A DNA stretch of 24,132 nt. It comes from a virus. Its lineage: Duplodnaviria > Caudoviricetes. A model generated the notes under the pieces. The model did not search any database. It was not told where the DNA came from and worked only from the letters and a program-made list of their open reading frames with translations. Positions 1-23,831 of this stretch are shown here, piece after piece; position 1 is the first letter of the stretch, and each line of letters opens with the position of its first letter. The stretch covers positions 1 to 24,132 of the IMG/VR virus record IMGVR_UViG_3300020045_013853; one strand, written 5' to 3'. A program made the translations under genes and the position numbers.

Positions 1-19
1 ACTGGACTCAATTACCTGA

Positions 20-9593: not shown

Positions 9594-10271
9594 TCATATT
9601 TTTTCGATTAACTGTAATAAATGATTAAAATCAGTAACCACACGCAATCGAAGTAAATTAATAAGCTGTTGCTCATAATCAGCACGTTGCTTAAGTTGCA
9701 AATAGTTAGCTGTATTCCAGTTGTTTCCATCGGGTTTAATTTTAACTTTCAGCGCAATTGCACAATCAATATAAGCTTGCACTTTGTCATAGTCTGCAAT
9801 TGTTAAATAGGCATCAATAGCAGCATTTAACCCAATAAATAAATCACCGCCATCATCCCGCCACTGTAAAATTTTTGACTCAATAAATGTCTTATACATT
9901 TCAAGTCTAAATTTCGCGTCCAGTCTTCCAGCAGCATCTAGTAAAATGTAAAGGTGCGCCCATGTGCCGCCGCCTTTTCCTCGCTTGGTTTTAATCAATG
10001 TACTTTTAATAGTGGGAACAACTCCATTTTTTAAATGTGTGGATTCCACACATTTACTTGCTATACCTAGGTCAGACTCAATTGCCCTGATAAACTCCAG
10101 AGTTTCCGGGCTTCTTAAAAAGTTATTAAGGTCTAAAGGATTTAATCCGTTTGATATTCTGTAACTATTGCCAATTTTCCATACATCAGTCAGAGAGCCA
10201 ATCATGGTTTTATGTTCAATCGGCAAAGCGTGAGAGCCTATTTTTACTAGCATTTGTTGATTAGTTTTCAT
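9594..10271 (-). CDS. KilA-N domain DNA-binding protein
   Basis: SLTDVWK, FLRSPET.EFI and RGKGGGTWAH..I..D.A..L..KF motifs. Confidence 0.85.
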   Translation of the reverse strand: MKTNQQMLVKIGSHALPIEHKTMIGSLTDVWKIGNSYRISNGLNPLDLNNFLRSPETLEFIRAIESDLGIASKCVESTHLKNGVVPTIKSTLIKTKRGKGGGTWAHLYILLDAAGRLDAKFRLEMYKTFIESKILQWRDDGGDLFIGLNAAIDAYLTIADYDKVQAYIDCAIALKVKIKPDGNNWNTANYLQLKQRADYEQQLINLLRLRVVTDFNHLLQLIEKI

Positions 10272-13212: not shown

Positions 13213-13481
13213 AGCGCGACATAGAAAGATATTTTACAGCACAATGCAAAAAACACGGGCTACTCCAATATAAATTCAGTAGCCCAGCGGTTCGCAGTGT
13301 GCCAGACAGATTGCTGATACATAACGGCATAACGCAGTTTATTGAGTTTAAAGCCACTGGCAAACTACCAACCGAAAAACAATCCGCTGAACATTTTAAA
13401 ATCTATTCAGCGGGGGCTAAAGTTTGGGTCGTGGACTCGCGTGATGGTGTGGATATTTTAATTGGTGAGGTTTTGAAATAA
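13206..13481 (+). CDS. VRR-NUC domain nuclease
   Basis: E..IE, KF.SP....VPDR, FIEFKA, T..Q, V.VVDS motifs. Confidence 0.9.
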   Translation: MLERDIERYFTAQCKKHGLLQYKFSSPAVRSVPDRLLIHNGITQFIEFKATGKLPTEKQSAEHFKIYSAGAKVWVVDSRDGVDILIGEVLK

Positions 13482-13587
13482 TGATATAATTATTTTGTGG
13501 TCTAGGCTTAGCGGCTGAAAATGGCTTGAACACCCATTGACCACATAATCCTTTGTTCAATAACCTACCGTTCAATAGGTCATCAAA
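13482..13587 (+). ncRNA. Structured leader RNA, copy 1 (extended -10 + three-way junction + SD-masking hairpin)
   Basis: TGATATAAT 13482-13490. P1 TGTGGTC/GACCACA, P2 GGC-TTAGCG-GCT, P3 AATGG-CTTGAACAC-CCATT. Loop complements TGTTCAA 13554-13560 and GTTCAA 13570-13575. Confidence 0.75.
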
Positions 13588-14169
13588 ATGCAATTATACA
13601 AGTTAGATTTTCCAAACGGCAAAAGCTATATTGGAATAACATCAAAAACAGCTCAAGAAAGATTTAATCAGCATTGCTGCAAATCTAAAAACAAAAACCC
13701 TTGCCAACTAGCTATCCACAAATACGGCAAAGAAAATATAATTATCAATGTTTTAGCAGAATGTAACGATTGGGAGTTGCTCTGTCTGGCAGAACAAGAA
13801 GCTATTGAAAAATTTAATACATTCAAGCCAAGCGGATATAACCTTACAAAAGGCGGTGAAGGAGTTTTTGGCTTAAAATGGGATGATTTAAGTAATCATA
13901 GAAACTTGCGACCATTTTCAGATGAAACTAGATTGAAGATGTCCATTTCCGCTTCAAATAAAAGTAAAAATCATAGAAACAAAATTTCTCAAGCCAATAA
14001 AATAGCACAATCAACCATCGAGGCAAAGGAAAGACAAAGAAAGATTGCTATTGCACAGCGCAAAAAACAAAGAGAAGCAAAAGAACAGAAAGAAAAAGAA
14101 TTGGCATCCCATAAGGCAACAATCAGAACTAAAAGATTGTTACGCGAAATGGCGGATAGCTTTAAATAA
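13588..14169 (+). CDS. Free-standing GIY-YIG homing endonuclease with NUMOD3-like helical repeats
   Basis: QLY...GKSYIGIT, catalytic R (ERF..H), AI.KYG.EN, E...I, GYNLT.GGEG, FSDETRLKMS. Confidence 0.9.
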   Translation: MQLYKLDFPNGKSYIGITSKTAQERFNQHCCKSKNKNPCQLAIHKYGKENIIINVLAECNDWELLCLAEQEAIEKFNTFKPSGYNLTKGGEGVFGLKWDDLSNHRNLRPFSDETRLKMSISASNKSKNHRNKISQANKIAQSTIEAKERQRKIAIAQRKKQREAKEQKEKELASHKATIRTKRLLREMADSFK

Positions 14170-14174
14170 TTACT

Positions 14175-14219
14175 AAACCCTGCTCTATGGCACTCGTCCT
14201 GTCATATCAGGGTTTTTTT
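14175..14219 (+). terminator. Long interrupted-stem terminator/attenuator upstream of rha
   Basis: AAACCCTG..TATGGCA-CTCGTCC-TGTCATA.CAGGGTTT followed by a T tract. Confidence 0.65.
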
Positions 14220-14233
14220 ATGCGAGAAAGAAA

Positions 14234-14878
14234 ATGTTAGTAGTATTTAATAGTTCAGAAAACACAATGTCCAGTTTAGAGATTGCTGAATTAACAGGCA
14301 AGCCTCATAACGATGTTTTAAAAGACATCCGCCGGATACTTGCAGAAGCAGAAATAGGAGAGGGGAAATTTTCCCACACCTATTTATCATCCCAAAATAA
14401 ACAACTCCCATGTTTTAATCTTCCCCGGCGGGAATGTGATTTAGTTATTGCAGGGTATTCTGTCAAATATCGTCTTGCTATTATTGACCGTTGGCAAGAA
14501 CTAGAAAAGACTAAAAATGCACAATTACCACAAACCTACATTGAGGCATTGCAACAACTTATCATCAAAGAACAGGAAAGAGAAAGATTAGAGATTGAAA
14601 ACAAAAAACTAAACACACTCATAGATAATGAGTTTGGCTATGTCTCCATAATTCGCGCGGCTGCTTATCTTGAAGTAAATGAAAAAGTTTTTAATTGGTC
14701 TGTGTTAAAAACCATGACCAAAGGGTTAGGATTAGAAGTTAAAAAAGTACCAAGTCCACGTTTTGCATATATGAACCTTTACCCAATTAAGGCTTTTCAA
14801 ATGGCTTATCCTGATTATGATTTTTCAGACTTAGAGCCTGAGCATTTAGACGACAAAGCAAAACTTATTTTAAACTAA
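14234..14878 (+). CDS. rha: Rha-family phage regulatory protein / antirepressor
   Basis: TMSSLEIAELTGK.H..VLKDIR, GYS.K.R..IIDRWQELE, LPQTY.EAL..L coiled coil. Confidence 0.9.
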   Translation: MLVVFNSSENTMSSLEIAELTGKPHNDVLKDIRRILAEAEIGEGKFSHTYLSSQNKQLPCFNLPRRECDLVIAGYSVKYRLAIIDRWQELEKTKNAQLPQTYIEALQQLIIKEQERERLEIENKKLNTLIDNEFGYVSIIRAAAYLEVNEKVFNWSVLKTMTKGLGLEVKKVPSPRFAYMNLYPIKAFQMAYPDYDFSDLEPEHLDDKAKLILN

Positions 14879-14884
14879 CCACCC

Positions 14885-14920
14885 AACCCGCCGCGATAGC
14901 ATCAAAGCGGGTTTATTTTT
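14885..14920 (+). terminator. Putative intrinsic terminator
   Basis: AACCCGC...GCGGGTT stem followed by TATTTTT. Confidence 0.5.
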
Positions 14921-14931
14921 GAGATAAAAAA

Positions 14932-15306
14932 ATGTATTTAGAAACTCTTTTTAAAATTATATCAATCTCTGAAAATGTTGCTATTTTAAAATCACTTGAT
15001 AATAAAAACGAAACTATAACAATGCCTATAGGAGATGTTTATTGCATGACTGATTGGGATTATTACCCATTTGCACAAGATAGTTATGACATAAACCCAT
15101 TTAATCCTCTTCCTGATTTTAAAAAAGGAAAATTGCATCCTGCTTTTGATACTGAACATAGAATAAATTCATGGCTAATGTTTTGCCAATTTGAACGAAC
15201 TATTATTAGTGATAGAACAGATAGATGGGAGCAAGTGCGACTAACAGAAAAGCAATTAAATCGGTTTAATAAAAGATATTGGAGCAAGTTAAATGCTAAC
15301 CCTTAA
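14932..15306 (+). CDS. Hypothetical protein (AT-rich)
   Basis: 124 aa ORF that overlaps the helicase start. Confidence 0.6.
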   Translation: MYLETLFKIISISENVAILKSLDNKNETITMPIGDVYCMTDWDYYPFAQDSYDINPFNPLPDFKKGKLHPAFDTEHRINSWLMFCQFERTIISDRTDRWEQVRLTEKQLNRFNKRYWSKLNANP

Positions 15307-16605
15307 AAACCTGCACGGCTACCAAAAGCGGTTTATTCGATTTATTTTAGAGCGCAGAAAGGTTTGCGGATTTATAGACATGGGCATGGGAAAAACTGTA
15401 AGCACACTAACCGCCGTAAACCACCTGCTAACCACTAACAAAATTAAAAAGGTTCTTATTTTAGCCCCGCTTAGAGTGGCTTGGCACACTTGGGACAGCG
15501 AGGCTTTAAATTGGGAACACTTACAGCACTTGCAAATCAGCAAGATTTTAGGAGCTGTAGCAAATCGAGAACACGCGCTTAAATCTGATAAACCGATCCA
15601 CATAATCAACGTTGACAATATTCCGTGGCTAGTCGGTTATCTTGGCAAAAGCGGCTTTGATTACGATTGCCTGGTGATTGACGAACTATCGCAATTTAAA
15701 AACTCATCATCTAAACGCTGGAAAGAATTAAAAAAGACATTGCCAAGGTTTAAATACGTCATAGGATTGACTGGAACGCCCTGCCCTAACTCACTTTTAG
15801 AGCTTTGGAGTCAACTGTTTTTAATTGATAAAGGCGAAAGACTAGGAAAATCTTTTTATCAGTTTAAGCAGCACTATTTTACCCCTGATTACATGGGATA
15901 TAACCACACGATTAAGCCCGGTTCAGAAATTGAGATACAGAACAAAATAAAGGATATTTGCTTAAGCATGTCTGCTGCTGATTATCACCAGTTATTTTTA
16001 ACAATGTTTTAGTTGAGTTGCCACAATCGGCGCGTAAGGCTTACGACAAGCTTAAAAAAGACATGATTGCAGAGATACAAGGCATTCAAGTCAATCCAGC
16101 TAATGCTGCTGTTTTGGTTGGGAAACTACAGCAAATAGCACAAGGTTTCGCCTACTCTGAAACTGAGACTATCCAGATTCACACCGCAAAACTGGACGCG
16201 CTTGAAGAAATAATGAGCGAGGCGGGTAGTAATGCACTGCTGTTTTATAAATTCAAACGAGATGCTGAGGCGATAAAAAAAGCCTTTCCTGAATCTGTGA
16301 ACGTATCAGAACCAGGAGCGATTGAGAATTGGAATAACGGCAAAATCAGGCTGTTAATTGCCCACCCCATGAGTGCTGGACACGGGCTATCACTACAGTA
16401 TGGCGGTAACGTAATTGTATGGTATGGGCTTACTCATTCATGTGAGCTGTATTTACAGGGCAATGCGCGAATTGATAGACAAGGAAAAACCAAAACAACA
16501 ATAATTCATAGAATTATTTGTAAAGATACGGTTGATAGTTCAATAATTGCAGTAGTAGAGCGGCGTGAAAACATACAGACAGCTCTATTGAAATCATTAA
16601 AATAA
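15293..16605 (+). pseudogene. SNF2-family phage helicase split by a frameshift near 15981-16010
   Basis: N-half: HGYQ, DMGMGKT, DELS, LTGTP. C-half: HPMSAGHGLSLQ, Q.NARIDRQG. The -1 frame reads SPVIFNNVLVELPQ straight into the second ORF. Confidence 0.8.
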
Positions 16606-16708
16606 TGATATAATGATTTTGTGGTCTAGGCTTAGCGGCTGAAAATCCCTTCAGTAAGGATTGACCACTTATTCAATACTGCTTATAAACTTAACTGGAG
16701 TTTATCAA
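16606..16708 (+). ncRNA. Structured leader RNA, copy 2
   Basis: 46/47 nt identical to copy 1 over 16600-16646. P1 GTGGTC/GACCAC, P3 AATCC-CTTCAGTAA-GGATT. Loop complements TACTG 16677-16681 and ACTGGAG 16694-16700. Confidence 0.75.
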
Positions 16709-17599
16709 ATGTCAGAACAAATCTATTGTGTTTATAAACACACATCACCAAGCGGTAAAGCCTATATCGGGCAAACTAATAATTATAAACGTAGAGAATC
16801 AGAGCATAGGAATCATTCACGTGTTGAATGCAGAAGCTTTCAGAATGCCATAAAAAAATATGGATGGGATAATTTCAAGCATGAGATTTTAAAAGAAAAT
16901 CTAAATCTTGAAGAAGCTAATTATTGGGAAATTAAGCTAATAAATGATTTAAAAACATTTTCGCCCAATGGATATAATTTAAAAGGTGGAGGAAATGGGG
17001 TTTCTCATTCGCAGGAAACAATACAAAAAATGATAGCTACTAGGTCTAAAAAAGAATACAGGGATGCTCACTCAATACGCCAAAAATTAATTCATAATGA
17101 CCCTGAAAGAAAAGCTTTGGCATCTAAGAAAACTACTGATTATTTTAAAAAAGAAGAAAATAGAAAAGCGCAATCAATTAGACAAAAAGAATGCCAGAAT
17201 AGACCAGAAGTATTAATAAAAAAATCAGAAGCATCTAAAAAAGCATTATCAGACCCTTTAATAAGAAAAAAAATATCAGATGGGGTTAAGTTATCTCGGG
17301 AAAAAGAGGGATATAAAGAAAAAGTTTCAGAAGCTATGAAAAAATCACATGCTAGACCAGAGGTGAGAAAAAGATTATCAGATTCAATAAAAAAAGCACA
17401 ATCTAAAGAAGGCTATAAAGAAAAGATTTCAATAGCTTTAAAATTAGCTTTATCCAATAAAGATGTAAAAGAAAAAATGTCAATTGCAGGAAAAAATAGG
17501 CAAAAAAGGGAAAAACAAGAAAAAATAGATAGAGAAAAGAAAATAGCAATAGACAATAAGTCATTATTATTTAGTTGGATGCAAACAGATTTATTTTAA
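16709..17599 (+). CDS. Free-standing GIY-YIG homing endonuclease with nine 17-aa helical repeats
   Basis: CVY...GKAYIGQT, R...H, AIKKYGWDNF, E..LI, GYNL.GGG, HSQETIQKM. Start moved to the ATG at 16709 (GGAG RBS). Confidence 0.9.
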   Translation: MSEQIYCVYKHTSPSGKAYIGQTNNYKRRESEHRNHSRVECRSFQNAIKKYGWDNFKHEILKENLNLEEANYWEIKLINDLKTFSPNGYNLKGGGNGVSHSQETIQKMIATRSKKEYRDAHSIRQKLIHNDPERKALASKKTTDYFKKEENRKAQSIRQKECQNRPEVLIKKSEASKKALSDPLIRKKISDGVKLSREKEGYKEKVSEAMKKSHARPEVRKRLSDSIKKAQSKEGYKEKISIALKLALSNKDVKEKMSIAGKNRQKREKQEKIDREKKIAIDNKSLLFSWMQTDLF

Positions 17600-17716
17600 T
17601 CTGTAATAATGATAATCCACCGGATTATTGCATCAGATACAGTTGATACCGCGATTATTGACGTTTTAGAAAAAAGACAAACAATACAAAACGCGCTTTT
17701 ATCTGCCCTTAAATAG
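17600..17716 (+). pseudogene. Displaced duplicate 3' end of the SNF2 helicase gene
   Basis: IIHRIIASDTVDTAIIDVLEKRQTIQNALLSALK* versus helicase end IIHRIICKDTVDSSIIAVVERRENIQTALLKSLK*: 22/34 identical, ungapped. Confidence 0.9.
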
Positions 17717-17764
17717 ACTGGATTGATTATAAACTATTAGTTTAGCCTCTCTAAACCAATCAGG

Positions 17765-17810
17765 CGGTATTATTATAATACCGTTTATAAGATAATGAAT
17801 CACGGTCTGA
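17765..17810 (+). promoter_or_regulatory. Palindromic operator and putative promoter
   Basis: Perfect CGGTATTAT-T-ATAATACCG (17765-17783) containing TATAAT, then GATAAT and TCACGGTCTGA. Confidence 0.55.
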
Positions 17811-17852
17811 GAGAGACAGGATAATTAAAATTAAAAAGAAGAGGATAGCATC

Positions 17853-17975
17853 ATGAAAATTATTGATAAAGACGGGAATGAAGTTTTTAGAAGCTTTTCA
17901 GTCTTGGCAGTATGGGAAGAATTTCACGAAAAATATAATGCTTTGGGTTTTAGAGTAGTAAGCCTTAACTGGTAA
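17853..17975 (+). CDS. 40-aa hypothetical protein
   Basis: MKIIDKDGNEVFRSFSVLAVWEEFHEKYNALGFRVVSLNW*, GAGGA RBS. Confidence 0.55.
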   Translation: MKIIDKDGNEVFRSFSVLAVWEEFHEKYNALGFRVVSLNW

Positions 17976-18023
17976 ACCAAGTTCACCCATTCCCGCAGTC
18001 GCAGGGCTTTTAGGATAGCAATC

Positions 18024-18164
18024 ATGACCAGAACCACCACTGTTATTGGCAAAAAAGACGGTTATTTTAACCGCGTAGTTTTGCGTGGTCATTGGCGCAG
18101 TGAGTCTGTAAATCGCAATGCAATAAAAAGGGGTGTTGTTGTTGAAAAAATAACTTGGAATTAA
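18024..18164 (+). CDS. 46-aa hypothetical protein
   Basis: MTRTTTVIGKKDGYFNRVVLRGHW...; initiation region AGGATAGCAATCATG is nearly identical to that of the previous ORF (AGGATAGCATCATG). Confidence 0.5.
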   Translation: MTRTTTVIGKKDGYFNRVVLRGHWRSESVNRNAIKRGVVVEKITWN

Positions 18165-18168
18165 AATC

Positions 18169-18333
18169 ATGACTCGGTATAAAAAACAGGGATACAGAAA
18201 AACCTTTATAAATGATCGCGGCGTTAAATCAAGTCGCCAATTTTTTGTAAAAACTGTTAGCTACAATCAAATGATTACAGAAATTAATGCTGTGATTTGT
18301 AGAATAAAAGCCACTCACGCAACGGCAAAATGA
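18169..18333 (+). CDS. 54-aa basic hypothetical protein
   Basis: MTRYKKQGYRKTFINDRGVKSSRQFF...; ATGA overlap with the next gene. Confidence 0.5.
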   Translation: MTRYKKQGYRKTFINDRGVKSSRQFFVKTVSYNQMITEINAVICRIKATHATAK

Positions 18334-18533
18334 GACCGTTTGAACAATGCAAAAACGCTGGTCTAGATAGCCTTGCAGAACTTGCAAGGTTAAGCGGACA
18401 GCAAAAACAAAAACTAATCCGCTGGCATAAACAACAACCTTTTTTATTTGAATCGGTTTTAATGTTAGCGGTTTTTAAAAAGAATGGGGAAAATGATGAA
18501 CAGGTTGGAAAAGATTCAGGTCGTAACGCTTGA
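18330..18533 (+). CDS. Small HTH DNA-binding protein
   Basis: P.EQCK.AGL.SLAELARLSG.....LI.W.K..P.LF pattern. Confidence 0.7.
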   Translation: MRPFEQCKNAGLDSLAELARLSGQQKQKLIRWHKQQPFLFESVLMLAVFKKNGENDEQVGKDSGRNA

Positions 18534-18597
18534 TATTGAAGCTTTGGTTATTTTTATTATTGCAATCGTAGGTATTGCTTGGCTGGTGATGGAATGA
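18493..18597 (+). CDS. 34-aa membrane peptide
   Basis: MMNRLEKIQVVTLDIEALVIFIIAIVGIAWLVME*, GGGGA RBS, ATGA overlap downstream. Confidence 0.45.
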   Translation: MMNRLEKIQVVTLDIEALVIFIIAIVGIAWLVME

Positions 18598-18971
18598 ACG
18601 ATTGCGTATTTAGAGCTGTAAAAAAAGCGGCCAATGTTTTTGGTGTTGATATTGAATCAACCGTGTTTGACAGATACAACAACGGTCAAGGGATTGATAC
18701 TTTTTTAATGCCCGGCGTGATTGAAGAGGCAATAAACCCGCACGGATTAACAGTTAAAAAAATACTGGTTGAATCTATCGACGGATTTAAAACAATTGCA
18801 GAAATAAAAGAAAACACCAATTTTTTATTAGCAGAAAGAATCTGTTTTGGTGGTGATATTGTCAGTCCTGCGGTTTTGCTGATGAAGGAACAAGATCACG
18901 TCGAGGCATATACCGGATTTGAGGAGTTTGGAGCTGTAAAAATGGCTATTTGTATCGGAGTAAAAAGATGA
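18594..18971 (+). CDS. Possible papain-like (peptidase C39-like) protein
   Basis: Start at ATG 18594. N-terminal NDCVFRA (Cys) and C-terminal strand-turn-DHVEAY (His). Confidence 0.45.
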   Translation: MNDCVFRAVKKAANVFGVDIESTVFDRYNNGQGIDTFLMPGVIEEAINPHGLTVKKILVESIDGFKTIAEIKENTNFLLAERICFGGDIVSPAVLLMKEQDHVEAYTGFEEFGAVKMAICIGVKR

Positions 18972-19129
18972 AAAAACTATTATTTTTAGCTGTAGTTTTG
19001 CGGCTTGTTGGATTCGACGGTGCTGTTAGCTATTTTGAGCAAGCCAGTCTTGAGGCTTGTATTGCCAATGGTCAAACCGCTGTTAATAATGGTTATTACC
19101 GTTCATATTCGTGTGAGCTGGGGGATTAA
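18968..19129 (+). CDS. 53-aa putative exported peptide
   Basis: MKKLLFLAVVL... with two Cys, ATGA overlap. Confidence 0.5.
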   Translation: MKKLLFLAVVLRLVGFDGAVSYFEQASLEACIANGQTAVNNGYYRSYSCELGD

Positions 19130-19306
19130 ATGAAAAAAGATATGCTTTTATTATTTATTGCATTTATCGCAATGGTGTCGGTAATTGTGTTATCAAGAGA
19201 TAATGCTGTTGAAACTCACACAATACCGCAGAACAAAATGAGCGCGTCACAGGCGTTAGGATTGCAAACTTGTTACAACGATAGTGGCGAATGTAAGCCA
19301 ATTTAA
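19130..19306 (+). CDS. 58-aa membrane-anchored peptide
   Basis: MKKDMLLLFIAFIAMVSVIVLS... with C-terminal CYNDSGEC, GGGGA RBS. Confidence 0.5.
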   Translation: MKKDMLLLFIAFIAMVSVIVLSRDNAVETHTIPQNKMSASQALGLQTCYNDSGECKPI

Positions 19307-19373
19307 ATAAACACCACACTGCAAAGCCCGAAACGCTTGCAATGTGGCTAAACCTGAACAGAGGTCTAAAGAT

Positions 19374-19499
19374 ATGATACTCGAAAAAATAACATATTAC
19401 ATAGGATATGTGGCAATGGTCATAATCCTTTTGTCAGTTGGTGATATTTTTAATTTCATTGGCAAATTGCAATCTTTTTTAATTTCGGTGATGAGATGA
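19374..19499 (+). CDS. 41-aa membrane peptide
   Basis: MILEKITYYIGYVAMVIILLSVGDIFNFIGKLQSFLISVMR*, GAGGT RBS. Confidence 0.45.
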   Translation: MILEKITYYIGYVAMVIILLSVGDIFNFIGKLQSFLISVMR

Positions 19500-19645
19500 G
19501 AAATTACATTGCTTTATTCAACGATCACGGCAAACCGCTAAAAGTAGTCATCACGGCAAAAAATATCAATGATGCTTTTGATAAAGCCTTGTTAAAAGAG
19601 ACCCGGCGCAATCATTTAGTTTCTGTCTGTTTGCAACCGGAGTGA
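19496..19645 (+). CDS. 49-aa hypothetical protein
   Basis: MRNYIALFNDHGKPLKVVITAKNINDAFDKA...; ATGA overlap. Confidence 0.5.
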   Translation: MRNYIALFNDHGKPLKVVITAKNINDAFDKALLKETRRNHLVSVCLQPE

Positions 19646-19649
19646 TGCC

Positions 19650-21011
19650 ATGAAAAAAATCGGATTATTTTTAGGTTTAATGATTACCTGTGCCATTGCG
19701 GTTGCTGAAGTGATGTTTAGTTGGTCACTAGCCGCAACACTGCCAGAACGGCTGTTATTGTGTGCGATTACAGCACCAATGGCGTTAATCGGTGGTGTAA
19801 TTATCAGTGTTGGCAATGAGCATATAGTTCATGGCCGGGCGCGTGGTTATTTTATGTTGTCGTTTAGCGTGTTGTTGTTCTTCTATTGTTGGAATAACTT
19901 TTTAGGCTCGTTATCTATGATTGACAACGGCTATGCTGTCAATTCTGATGCTCAAAAAATGGAAGATTTGAAAAGAGAAATAGTACAAAAAAAGGTAGAT
20001 ATTCTGGCAGTTGGTAAGTTTGACGTAAACAAAGCGGCTGCCGATTTAGAGCGAATGGAGAGAGCAAAAGTACAGTGCAAGCTTTCATGGCGTGAAAAGG
20101 CTAAAGACATGAACGGCACTGGCTGCAAAAGTAAAGCCCTGGCTGGAGAAGATGCGATTAAAATGAAAATTGATGCACAACGCGATTATGTTAAATCGTT
20201 AGACGAGGCCAAGGAAACAATCTCTGAATCAACAGAGTCGGGATGGATGAAAACTAACCCCCACTTTCAGCAAGTAGCCAGGATTATTTTTGGAGCGAAA
20301 GAACGTGCCGAAGATGCCCAGGCATGGTTAAGGTTTATCGGTTCGTTTATTGCAATGAGTATTAGCTTTTTGACTGGTTTTTTCTTTGCCGACGAGTACA
20401 AAACAGCAATTAAAAGGCAGTTAAAAGCGGCTGATGCGATAGCAGCACAACAAGGCTATTCACAACCGCCCCGCCCTGACCCGATAACCGCACAAATAAA
20501 ACAAGCGGCTGCTAATCTGGATAATCGTTTAAATGAAATTATTGCAAAAGGTAAAGAGATAACAATGGCTAAACCAAGTGCTGAGGATTATGAATTGGAT
20601 GAAAGGTTTTTGGATAATCGGTCTGAGCCTAGAAAGCCGTTTATGGGTTTTATTGATACGGATAGTTTGCCGAAGGTTGAGAAGAAAGTACAAGATACAA
20701 ACCATCAGATTCAAAAGCCTATTGTAAAAAATACAACCGTTTGTACTCCCAGCGATACAAAAATACAGAATACAAAAACTGTATTAAACGCTGAAAGCCG
20801 CGATTCTGTAGCGTTCGCTTATGATAAGCTGAAAGAAAATGTACTGAATGGGAATTTTTACCAATCATTTAAAAAATGCAATGGCAGAAATGCAATGGCA
20901 TATTTGAGAAGTATTAATACAAAATGCTCACAAAATACAGCTTATGAATTGGTTGATACTTTGAAAAAAGAAAGCATTATTGATGATATTGGCTTAATAA
21001 AAAATACATAA
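19650..21011 (+). CDS. Multi-TM membrane protein with coiled coil, low-complexity linker and probable C-terminal HTH
   Basis: Three N-terminal hydrophobic helices, a coiled coil, a fourth TM (WLRFIGSFIAMSISFLTGFFF), and a helical C-terminal domain. Confidence 0.75.
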   Translation: MKKIGLFLGLMITCAIAVAEVMFSWSLAATLPERLLLCAITAPMALIGGVIISVGNEHIVHGRARGYFMLSFSVLLFFYCWNNFLGSLSMIDNGYAVNSDAQKMEDLKREIVQKKVDILAVGKFDVNKAAADLERMERAKVQCKLSWREKAKDMNGTGCKSKALAGEDAIKMKIDAQRDYVKSLDEAKETISESTESGWMKTNPHFQQVARIIFGAKERAEDAQAWLRFIGSFIAMSISFLTGFFFADEYKTAIKRQLKAADAIAAQQGYSQPPRPDPITAQIKQAAANLDNRLNEIIAKGKEITMAKPSAEDYELDERFLDNRSEPRKPFMGFIDTDSLPKVEKKVQDTNHQIQKPIVKNTTVCTPSDTKIQNTKTVLNAESRDSVAFAYDKLKENVLNGNFYQSFKKCNGRNAMAYLRSINTKCSQNTAYELVDTLKKESIIDDIGLIKNT

Positions 21012-21023
21012 TTTTGTATTTTC

Positions 21024-21133
21024 TGGTATAATGTAGCCTCAAAACGTGAATACTCTTAGCGGGGGAAAAGCAATTATCGGTAATTGCCTGTCACGTTTCC
21101 AACTCATACCGACAATTTCTAACCGAGGAAATT
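21024..21133 (+). ncRNA. Structured leader RNA, copy 3 (diverged)
   Basis: TGGTATAAT 21024-21032. P1 AAACGTGA/TCACGTTT, P2 CTC-TTAGCG-GGG, GAAAA linker, P3 GCAATTA-TCGG-TAATTGC. Loop complements TACCGA 21107-21112 and ACCGA 21122-21126. Confidence 0.7.
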
Positions 21134-21706
21134 ATGAACAAAATTGAACAGGCTATCGCCTTAATTCTAAGCACTTCTTTAAGTGACAATCAAAAACAAC
21201 AAGCTTTATTGCTTGTATGTTCATCAGAACAAAACCAACCAAAACCCCAATTCAAACCCGTAAAAAACCCGCCACAAGATACGTTTGTTTATCTCATTGA
21301 GAACGAACAAGGACATATCAAAATAGGCTTTTCTGGCAATCCTGAAAAGAGATTAAGCCAATTAAAAACCGGTTGCCCCAGTGCTAAATTGCTTCATAAA
21401 TTCATTGGCACTATGCAAGATGAAAAGCACTTGCAATCATTGTTTTCTGGAAAGAATATCGACAAGGAATGGTTTAGATTAAATGGCGGTGATATTGAAG
21501 AGATAAAGGAGTATTTTGAAGTAAAGAAATCAATCAAAAATACTCAGCTTGAACAGCTAATACAATCAATTAATACAAAAGAGTTTTTTAAAAAAGAAAG
21601 CTTTGTTGGTGTTAATTCAATAAAAAGACAGTGCAAAACTGGAACTGGAAAAGCACAAGTTTTAATGACCATGCTTATTGAGCGTGGGGTTAATTTGTCT
21701 AAGTAA
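21134..21706 (+). CDS. T5orf172/MUG113-like GIY-YIG superfamily nuclease with C-terminal HTH-like domain
   Basis: FVYLI.....IKIGFS.NPEKRL.QL.TG.P, E..L...F......EWF.L. Confidence 0.88.
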   Translation: MNKIEQAIALILSTSLSDNQKQQALLLVCSSEQNQPKPQFKPVKNPPQDTFVYLIENEQGHIKIGFSGNPEKRLSQLKTGCPSAKLLHKFIGTMQDEKHLQSLFSGKNIDKEWFRLNGGDIEEIKEYFEVKKSIKNTQLEQLIQSINTKEFFKKESFVGVNSIKRQCKTGTGKAQVLMTMLIERGVNLSK

Positions 21707-22472: not shown

Positions 22473-22801
22473 ACCTACTGGATGAAGTATGCCGTGAATG
22501 TGGAGGCTCAGGCTCTCCAAAATATTTGAGATTATCAGAGCAAATTCCCGATGAGATTCCTGCATCACTTTGCGGTGTTTGCGGCGGTTCTGGAAAGATT
22601 CCGCACAAATCAGAAACTAAAAAAGGGCATGATGAAATGAGTTTATTGGTTGAAGAAGCAAAAGCAGTTGTTAGGTCTGGACAATTGTCATATAAAGCAA
22701 TGGTTTTAATTAACGGATTGATTGCTGAAAATGAGCAATTAAAAGAGCAAATTAAAGAACTCGAAGCGGATAAACCGAATAAGGGGCTAGACGACAAATG
22801 A
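22469..22801 (+). CDS. DnaJ-type CxxCxGxG Zn finger protein with C-terminal coiled coil
   Basis: CRECGGSG and CGVCGGSG. Confidence 0.7.
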   Translation: MNLLDEVCRECGGSGSPKYLRLSEQIPDEIPASLCGVCGGSGKIPHKSETKKGHDEMSLLVEEAKAVVRSGQLSYKAMVLINGLIAENEQLKEQIKELEADKPNKGLDDK

Positions 22802-23301
22802 CAAGCATAGAATGGAATAAATTAGTAATTGAGTTTGGCGAACAGGCTTATAAACAGGTATGTATTCGTGTGCCGCCTAACCGTTTTAGTTTTGAAGATA
22901 ATTTTCAGGTTGCTACCTGTGAAGATTTTGAAGAGATTGAGTCGATGCCTTTAACTGAGCTTTTTAGGCTTGATGTTGAGGCGTATGGTGATAATGCGTT
23001 TTTAATTTATGGATATTGCCATTTTGAAGGTGATGTAATAAATGATTTTTCATTCAATAGTCAAATTTTAGGATTGATAGAATCAGGTTATAGCGATAGA
23101 TTAATCCGCAAACAATCCGCCGCTTTGCCGTTTGATTTAGAAAGAGCAAAAGCGGGGGATATTTTTGAGGTAAAAGGCATTGATAATGCGTGGTTTGTAC
23201 CGTCCGAAAGTGAAGAGTCAAATAGTTTGATTACTATTTTTGAATCTTGCCCTAATCGCAAGGATTTACGCATGAAATACCCACCAAGGATAAGCAAATG
23301 A
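22798..23301 (+). CDS. Hypothetical protein, paralog A
   Basis: Shares four conserved blocks with 23298..23831. Confidence 0.75.
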   Translation: MTSIEWNKLVIEFGEQAYKQVCIRVPPNRFSFEDNFQVATCEDFEEIESMPLTELFRLDVEAYGDNAFLIYGYCHFEGDVINDFSFNSQILGLIESGYSDRLIRKQSAALPFDLERAKAGDIFEVKGIDNAWFVPSESEESNSLITIFESCPNRKDLRMKYPPRISK

Positions 23302-23831
23302 CAAGTAAAGAATGGCAGGATTTAGTAAACGAGTTTGGTGATGATGCTTTTAAACGCATTGGAGTAACGTTCATGGGCGAAGGCATTGGATATTCCAACC
23401 CAGAATGTAATTGTCATGTTGAGTTTTATGGCTCTCCATTAAGAAGTTTACAAGAACTTTTTAAACTTGATGTTGAGACTTATGGTGATAATGCTTATTT
23501 AATGTGGTTATTTGGCATTGATATTGCCGATTATGGAAATAATCCAGAAGCAAACCCTATTATTGAATCTTTTACAGCAGAAAATAATGACGATGCTAGA
23601 GAATCTTTTTTAAAAGCAGATTGTTATAAGCGCAAACAATCCGCAGCTTTGCCGTTTGACATAAATCGCGCACAGAATGGCGATGCTGTACAGGTTTTTA
23701 TTAATGCCGAATTGATTGACATGGATTATAAAAACTTTAGACCTGTAGGGGATTGGGACAATTTCAGCTTTAAATTTCCTGAAGATTTGCGCATGAAATA
23801 CCCGCCAAGGCTTGATAATGAAAACCGCTAA
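23298..23831 (+). CDS. Hypothetical protein, paralog B
   Basis: MTS.EW..LV.EFG, ELF.LDVE.YGDNA.L, RKQSAALPFD..RA and DLRMKYPPR shared with paralog A. Confidence 0.75.
   Translation: MTSKEWQDLVNEFGDDAFKRIGVTFMGEGIGYSNPECNCHVEFYGSPLRSLQELFKLDVETYGDNAYLMWLFGIDIADYGNNPEANPIIESFTAENNDDARESFLKADCYKRKQSAALPFDINRAQNGDAVQVFINAELIDMDYKNFRPVGDWDNFSFKFPEDLRMKYPPRLDNENR

Follow-up and report, generated by a model that had tools for sequence, protein, structure and literature searches.

The window analysed here is a 24-kb linear virus record (IMG/VR record IMGVR_UViG_3300020045_013853; Duplodnaviria, Caudoviricetes; positions 1 to 24,132, all features on the + strand unless marked otherwise). It carries three nuclease-family genes, each of which lies behind a structured RNA leader with one hairpin loop complementary to two downstream sites, the second of them at the Shine-Dalgarno (SD) sequence of the nuclease gene. 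Comparison with a wider family led us to conclude that this two-site leader is real and widespread and is a variant and mechanistic extension of a catalogued orphan RNA motif, int-alpA, and that a switch is likely but a private code is not.

Three nuclease-family genes and their leaders

Genes 1 (13588..14169, 193 amino acids (aa)) and 2 (16709..17599, 296 aa) belong to the GIY-YIG homing-endonuclease family; the former matches Pfam GIY-YIG (4e-08) and phrog_314 (2.5e-29), and the latter is 38% identical to it across the nuclease domain. Gene 3 (21134..21706, 190 aa) has a MUG113 / T5orf172 domain (Pfam MUG113 2.1e-11, T5orf172 8.1e-08), and we take it to belong to the GIY-YIG superfamily as well. 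The core UUAGCGGnnGAAAA occurs three times in the window, where 0.22 occurrences are expected, and all three leaders share one layout: an extended -10-like box (TG-n-TATAAT), a three-way junction, a short linker lacking G, a first target (T1), a hairpin (P4) and the AUG. Each junction runs in the order P1, UA, P2, GAAAA, P3, two pyrimidines and P1'. T1 lies outside the SD hairpin, whereas the second target (T2) lies in the loop of P4, mostly overlapping or abutting the SD, which occupies the 3' strand of that hairpin.

In cassette 1, the box (13482..13490), recognised from sequence and from enrichment at the same place in the family, starts directly after the stop codon of the upstream endonuclease gene; no -35 match was found for it, and a two-hexamer promoter scan did not list it. 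The junction (13495..13546; 42.0 bits with our own model) consists of P1 (13497-13502/13539-13544), P2 (13505-13516), GAAAA (13517-13521) and P3 (13522-13536, loop 13525-13533), and is followed by T1 (13554..13560, 7 bp) and P4 (13563..13580), with T2 at 13570-13575 in its loop and the SD AGGU at 13577-13580. Loop nucleotides UUGAACA (13526-13532) pair with UGUUCAA in T1, and UUGAAC with GUUCAA in T2. In cassette 2, the box (16606..16614) is part of a 78-nt repeat 85% identical with cassette 1, and precedes the junction (16619..16670, P3 loop 16649-16657; 42.3 bits), T1 (16677..16681, 5 bp) and P4 (16685..16705), whose T2 (16694-16700) spans the loop and the SD GGAG (16697-16700). Here CAGUA pairs with UACUG in T1, and CUUCAGU with ACUGGAG in T2 (one G-U). 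Cassette 3 has its box at 21024..21032 and its junction at 21043..21097 (P3 21070-21087; 41.8 bits), and then T1 (21107..21112, 6 bp) and P4 (21114..21133), in the loop of which T2 (21122-21126) overlaps the SD GAGG (21125-21128). Its reading segment UCGGUA (21077-21082) pairs with UACCGA in T1, and UCGGU with ACCGA in T2.

These pairings are those that a previous sequence-only reading of this DNA had described, with one correction: in copy 3 the complements are present, but the top two A-U pairs of P3 must open for them to form, as the loop in the minimum free energy structure is UCGG only. The three SD-masking hairpins were also predicted to fold as that reading had drawn them (-3.7, -4.7 and -3.7 kcal/mol for copies 1, 2 and 3). 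In copies 1 and 3, the loop-target helices exceed in length every other Watson-Crick helix that leader and tail can form, while in copy 2 the 5-bp T1 helix ties with one other. Because single-leader folding z-scores were weak (-0.03 to -1.9 for the three window leaders), the leaders owe their support to the family rather than to the window by itself.

Cassettes 1 and 2 share a repeat (13473-13550 and 16597-16674) that starts within the final codons of the genes preceding them, which are unrelated but both end ..LK-stop, and that takes in the promoter box. The nucleases behind the repeat are just 38% identical, so that copying of the cap from one cassette to the other is probable.

A family of two-site leaders related to int-alpA

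Judged by junction and model scores, the window leaders are a divergent branch of the orphan Rfam motif int-alpA (RF02996), below formal membership. This motif reportedly originates from Weinberg et al. 2017. Its gathering cut-off is 35.8 bits; copy 3 scored 33.3 bits (E 4.2e-7), and copies 1 and 2 gave no reported match. Three matches obtained by scanning the window against Rfam at E ≤ 1 were rejected, all being chance. The int-alpA junction P1-UA-P2-GAAAA-P3-YU-P1' is present in the window copies, and our own model, built from 18 equal-length relatives (8 Rfam-called and 10 found by pattern, none from the window), picked exactly the three window copies at about 42 bits each. Rfam-called copies, which have the same junction (with CU before P1'), also have the same two-site layout (105/136). 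The window copies differ from int-alpA in their P2 loop (UAGC), in their short AU-rich P3 stems and in their position, which is before nuclease genes and not in an integrase / orphan gene / alpA arrangement. Rfam types RF02996 as Gene; sRNA, with a U-rich tail after P1 in the consensus, and its structure line contains no loop-target pairs and stops before T2 and the SD hairpin.

Relatives were collected with exact patterns, which gave 1, 64 and 11 viral loci and 29 loci in cellular genomes, and with RF02996, which matched in 13 of 151 genomes of one class sample and in 71 of 151 from the family of a Methylobacter genome (148 matches, 111 of which were analysed, chosen for multi-copy genomes). 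Nine of 20 scanned pattern-found viral loci reached the RF02996 cut-off. Searches with blastn against cultured phages gave weak partial matches only, two of which our own model confirmed as real. From 240 candidate sites we set aside 9 that could not be parsed and 16 exact duplicates and kept 215, probable chance matches among them.

The fold is supported by covariation: 94.8% of cells were paired and 15 of 16 pairs showed two-sided change, a level that none of 500 shuffles reached, in a set of 18 equal-length sequences whose selection for good stems favours this result. The pairing of the loop was scored separately. Among 124 distinct loops, at least 5 bp were formed with T1 in 107, with T2 in 102 and with both in 95, whereas 13,756 non-cognate loop-tail pairs sharing no 5-mer gave 15%, 31% and 6.8%, and shuffled tails gave 17%, 22% and 3.8%. 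Where loops differed at one or two positions, the change was compensated in T1 in 123/165 comparisons and in T2 in 95/148, although such comparisons are not independent events. The proposal that loop and targets change together in a way hard to get by chance stands as far as cognate pairing across the family is concerned; the mutual exclusiveness of the three window copies, in contrast, is no more than chance would give. On this sequence comparison, we consider the loop-target pairing real beyond reasonable doubt, in Rfam-called int-alpA included.

The genes behind the leaders are diverse. In cellular loci, an integrase lay upstream in 40/55, the downstream gene was an orphan (45/47 without a Pfam match), and AlpA or HTH_17 was found as a later short open reading frame (ORF) in 19/46, these being crude picks. 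Viral and pattern-found copies precede HNH, GIY-YIG, AP2, Rha, DUF1376 and integrase genes, and the element is not nuclease-specific. In two Planctomycetes loci (L130, L146) the gene immediately behind the leader is the integrase gene. Loss of T2 or of the gene is seen in several copies (L236, L252, L273, L277, L280), and in one (L149; G003:C62:2247-2315, -), possibly a stand-alone copy, the intact junction leads into a terminator-like hairpin without a gene behind it. A DUF3800-VII RNA (50.5 bits) lies at L006:1862-1946, behind a leader-bearing HNH gene. One phage (L001) has its sole leader copy before a gene like nuclease 2, with yet another code, and also a GIY-YIG gene (L001:3-251, -) whose start resembles that of window nuclease 1 by eye.

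The genes around the leaders in the window are phage genes for replication and accessory functions. Cassette 2 is immediately preceded by the resident 3' end of a SNF2-type helicase gene (16501..16605), and a diverged second copy of its last 34 codons lies behind nuclease 2 (17612..17716; 22/34 residues identical, 65%; E 5e-15). We infer that this duplicated helicase end is the scar of a homing-type insertion; cassette 2, which combines a GIY-YIG domain with traces of insertion at a conserved gene, has the features of a free-standing GIY-YIG homing cassette. By small margins, 14 relatives of the helicase end were nearer to the resident end and 6 to the displaced end, with one tie. The leader was absent from the loci of nuclease-2 relatives (0/40) and of helicase-end relatives (0/43), so that no pair of empty and filled alleles was found, and the leader is thus a cap that moves between genes. 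The same helicase gene is interrupted near 15990-16020 by a frameshift, which divides it into two frames (15293-16012 and 16018-16605) and may be an assembly error or mark a pseudogene. The Rha and KilA-N genes of the window (14234-14878; 9594-10271, -) have no leader by model scan, and Rha genes in other phages do (L020 and L034; L322 by eye). Tandem paralogous genes at 22798-23301 and 23298-23831, without a Pfam match, are 72-82% identical in three stretches.

The sequence-only reading had further taken each loop for a private address code, which we reject, and had offered as an alternative a leader RNA acting in trans with cassette-specific immunity, a specificity that is not supported either. 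No window loop reads both sites of another window copy, and in six two-copy virus records (50 searched) together with the window none of 18 ordered pairs cross-read. However, the cross-reading background between phages is 5.3%, at which 0 of 9 within-phage pairs has P = 0.61, so that orthogonality within a phage is what chance would give. Copies within one cellular genome cross-read in 62/208 ordered pairs (30%), compared with 18% for copies from different genomes (P = 0.0014 in a permutation test for more sharing), and a cross-reading pair was present in 22 of 32 multi-copy genomes. Part of this sharing may be due to recent duplication or to binning, but it is plain that copies with the same code live side by side. 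The code of copy 1 turned up again at five other loci, where the genes behind the leader are HNH, Rha or unassigned. The 186 copies contained 89 cores, mostly anti-SD-like words. Codes are thus shared both within genomes and across unrelated phage genes, and the pattern points to the loop sequence being a lineage trait held near anti-SD sequences, for which "cognate" is the right word and "private" is not.

Geometry of the two sites and models of their action

Positions relative to the ribosome-binding site were evaluated in 181 unique two-site copies, 159 of them with a called start, using standard consensus sequences for the SD and the -10 box. A -10 box ended 2-9 nt before P1 in 21/48 viral and 43/115 cellular copies, as compared with 7% and 5% after shuffling, and the 5' end of the RNA is therefore probably at P1. 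T1 begins 7-9 nt past P1 in 139/181 (search window 2-19) after a linker of 50% U, 32% C and 2% G, and the T1-T2 spacing is 6-11 nt in 157 copies. Tether length did not correlate with P3 length (rho 0.02). The idea that the linker is a second anti-SD strand was dropped, as no cognate excess was found (63/107 vs 55% at 4 bp; 21/107 vs 23% at 5 bp), and no room for a leader ORF was visible in the 40-nt tail.

T1 ends 19-27 nt upstream of the start codon in 142/159 copies, a distance that corresponds to about the edge of the footprint of an initiating ribosome. T2 overlaps the SD by at least 2 nt in 98/159 and by 1 nt or abuttingly in 55/159. Within P4, 679 of 877 T2 bases are unpaired, and T2 touches the SD strand in 83/156. 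In predicted structures, at least 4 nt of the SD were left free in 47/159 copies with T2 paired vs 138/159 without, and P4 retained at least 5 pairs with T2 occupied in 119/159; T2 pairing looks like a lock added onto P4.

The reading that we favour, tentatively and at somewhat less than even confidence, is that the leader is a two-state translational switch acting in cis, translatable with the loop on T1 and locked with the loop on T2. The covarying fold, the two complements, the fixed spacing, the SD hairpin and the position of T2 at the SD are its basis in the sequences, and the two-state pseudoknot or kissing-loop switch of the sequence-only reading agrees with family covariation and predicted geometry. 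Transcription would start at P1, and the loop would dock first on T1, which is made first. This state is taken to be translatable because T1 in most copies ends at the distance from the start codon given above, and only the weak P4 would then cover the SD. The loop would subsequently move to T2 in the loop of P4, and the resulting kissing state would lock the SD shut, turning the gene off. The effect would be a short, capped burst of a risky protein per transcript, be it a nuclease, Rha, DUF1376 or the first gene of an integrase-alpA island. The loop might be moved by time, by a protein or by a ligand at the conserved UA / P2 / GAAAA junction; a kinetic timer is a guess, for which the delayed-folding leader of the MS2 maturation gene provides a precedent. 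A tether of fixed length, as seen in the T1 start positions, fits a switch in cis, as do the absence of a terminator behind P1 in most copies and the absence of selection for distinct codes.

Several observations weigh against this switch. T1 forms the stronger duplex by nearest-neighbour energy more often than T2 does (26 vs 11 of 48 viral, 60 vs 25 of 115 cellular copies), and a spontaneous move to T2 would therefore need a kissing-loop bonus. P4 already pairs the SD in the T1 state (buried SD bases had an unpaired probability of 0.00-0.12), so that neither state looks fully on. A hairpin of -1 kcal/mol or lower follows T1 in 156/159 copies (median -4.6), a count that has no shuffled control beside it. 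Compensation is looser in T2 than in T1, with 32/148 substitutions leaving T2 unchanged and unpaired. Each of the 89 cores would have needed three coordinated changes, which is easier to explain if a change of code is rewarded, as for trans-acting RNAs.

Feedback in trans, a close rival to which we give somewhat less confidence than to the switch in cis, would account for some of these points. T1 would mask the loop in the full-length mRNA, and a stable junction RNA of 55-60 nt without T1, released by decay or cleavage in the G-free linker, would kiss T2 of new mRNAs. The gene would then fire on entering a cell without the matching RNA and shut itself off, and elements of the same code would repress each other, an immunity of the group and not a private one. 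T1 is nearer, earlier and usually stronger, so that a loop acting in cis could fail to get to T2 at all, and T2 is conserved even so. T2 is also presented in a hairpin loop, the 5' end of the released RNA would be closed in P1, code diversity is high, and P4 CI and IsrK are precedents (PMC4825925). However, a dedicated terminator behind P1 is lacking in most copies (UUUU in only 13/48 viral, 31/115 cellular and 0/3 window copies), codes are shared within genomes above chance, and the pairing is only 5-7 bp without extension. There is also no upstream complement of the kind seen in CI and c4 (25/181 vs 15.3% non-cognate, in the 40 nt searched). As for targets in trans before other genes of the window, each loop has 5-7 bp complements before 7-10 of 42 starts, not distinguishable from background. 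A stronger form, in which the leader is a portable, gene-independent RNA self-immunity module, with T1 hiding its own loop and the released 60-nt RNA kissing T2 so that any nuclease, antirepressor, replication or island gene acquiring the cap fires once in a naive cell and is then silenced together with same-code co-residents, we regard as unlikely.

Stranded RNA-seq from one study covers two cellular copies in one genome (G200; L285 and L286). At L285, leader-strand depth drops 6- to 7-fold (184 to 26 and 263 to 43) from the upstream operon to the gene behind the leader, as release of a leader in trans might produce; the drop is gradual, with no sharp end called. The transcript that enters the leader there comes from a toxin-antitoxin-like gene pair (by eye; L285:1042-1528) between the integrase and the leader. 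At L286, where again no sharp end was called, the leader has a depth of 1.5-12x and its gene 18-32x, without the excess of leader reads that release would give. Seven X22 reads end 4 nt past P1, with equal piles elsewhere. Ordinary libraries lose RNAs of 60 nt and would not be expected to contain a released leader.

That pairing with T2 activates translation, by prising P4 open and freeing the SD as in the repZ pseudoknot or IsrK while T1 serves as an off or decoy state, seems improbable. It would suit a minority of copies, copy 1 included, but most copies have a T2 that overlaps the SD, contact with the SD strand is the more frequent case, fewer than 4 nt of the SD stay free in 112/159, and P4 survives T2 occupancy in most. 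We give still less weight to the structure acting mainly on transcription or RNA decay, as an attenuator or a 3' barrier for the upstream message with translation secondary. The depth drop at L285 and the U-rich tail of the Rfam consensus speak for it, but the drop is gradual and comes from one locus of one study, most copies lack a U-tract, and targets and hairpin are pinned to the SD and the start codon. Chance complementarity in AT-rich DNA, which short helices of 5-7 bp, the weak z-scores and the frequency of 5-bp complements before 7-10 of the 42 window starts per loop could suggest, is refuted by the family-wide cognate excess and compensation.

If the switch in cis is correct, a common orphan RNA motif gains a concrete and cheaply testable mechanism. 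The same cap has been transferred to selfish phage genes of unrelated kinds (GIY-YIG, HNH, Rha, DUF1376 and integrases), while close relatives of nuclease 2 do without it. To our knowledge, the dosing of free-standing homing endonucleases outside T-even phages and of the first genes of phage satellites has been little studied. For synthetic gene control, a 90-nt switch that comes with many natural orthogonal loop-target sets would also be directly usable as a part.

Comparison with known systems

A two-site loop-target layout of this type was not found reported in the open-licence PMC and bioRxiv literature. In PMC12370729, int-alpA as an RNA is a table entry without follow-up, and PMC13612085 uses int-alpA for gene order. 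The name does not occur in the main text of Weinberg et al. 2017 (PMC5737381), in the passages covered, and the supplement of that paper may already note a pseudoknot or a cis role.

Hairpins that sequester the ribosome-binding site hold down the T-even homing endonucleases I-TevI, segB and mobE (PMC2988022). The window leaders resemble them in that the SD of a selfish nuclease gene is, by prediction, buried in a hairpin. In T-even phages, however, the hairpin loses its 5' arm through a late promoter that lies within it, whereas the -10-like boxes of the window lie upstream of the whole leader, in a scan that did not include phage-specific promoters; the window hairpins are also weak, and are joined by an upstream loop with two targets.

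P1/P7 c4 is likened to P4 CI and IsrK as a leader-derived RNA of a mobile element that pairs with its own transcript. No C4, IsrK or related Rfam match was found in the window or in 20 loci. A resemblance of the P2 loop to c4 RNA was dropped, since the relevant part of PMC2864571 shows the motif in the c4-a1b1 targets and no C4 model match was obtained. P4 CI and Gifsy-1 IsrK nevertheless share with the window leaders a leader-derived mobile-element RNA that pairs with its own transcript at two target sites (PMC4825925). The targets of CI flank the RNA and cause termination, and IsrK has its own terminator and activates, whereas in the window both targets are downstream and short, and one is at the SD.

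The repZ leader of IncI plasmids also resembles the window leaders, as the loop of an upstream stem-loop pairs in cis beside the SD (PMC8383071, PMC10724649). In repZ there is one target, whose pairing activates translation and is blocked by a counter-transcribed antisense RNA, whereas the window leaders present two tandem targets in a geometry that favours covering the SD.

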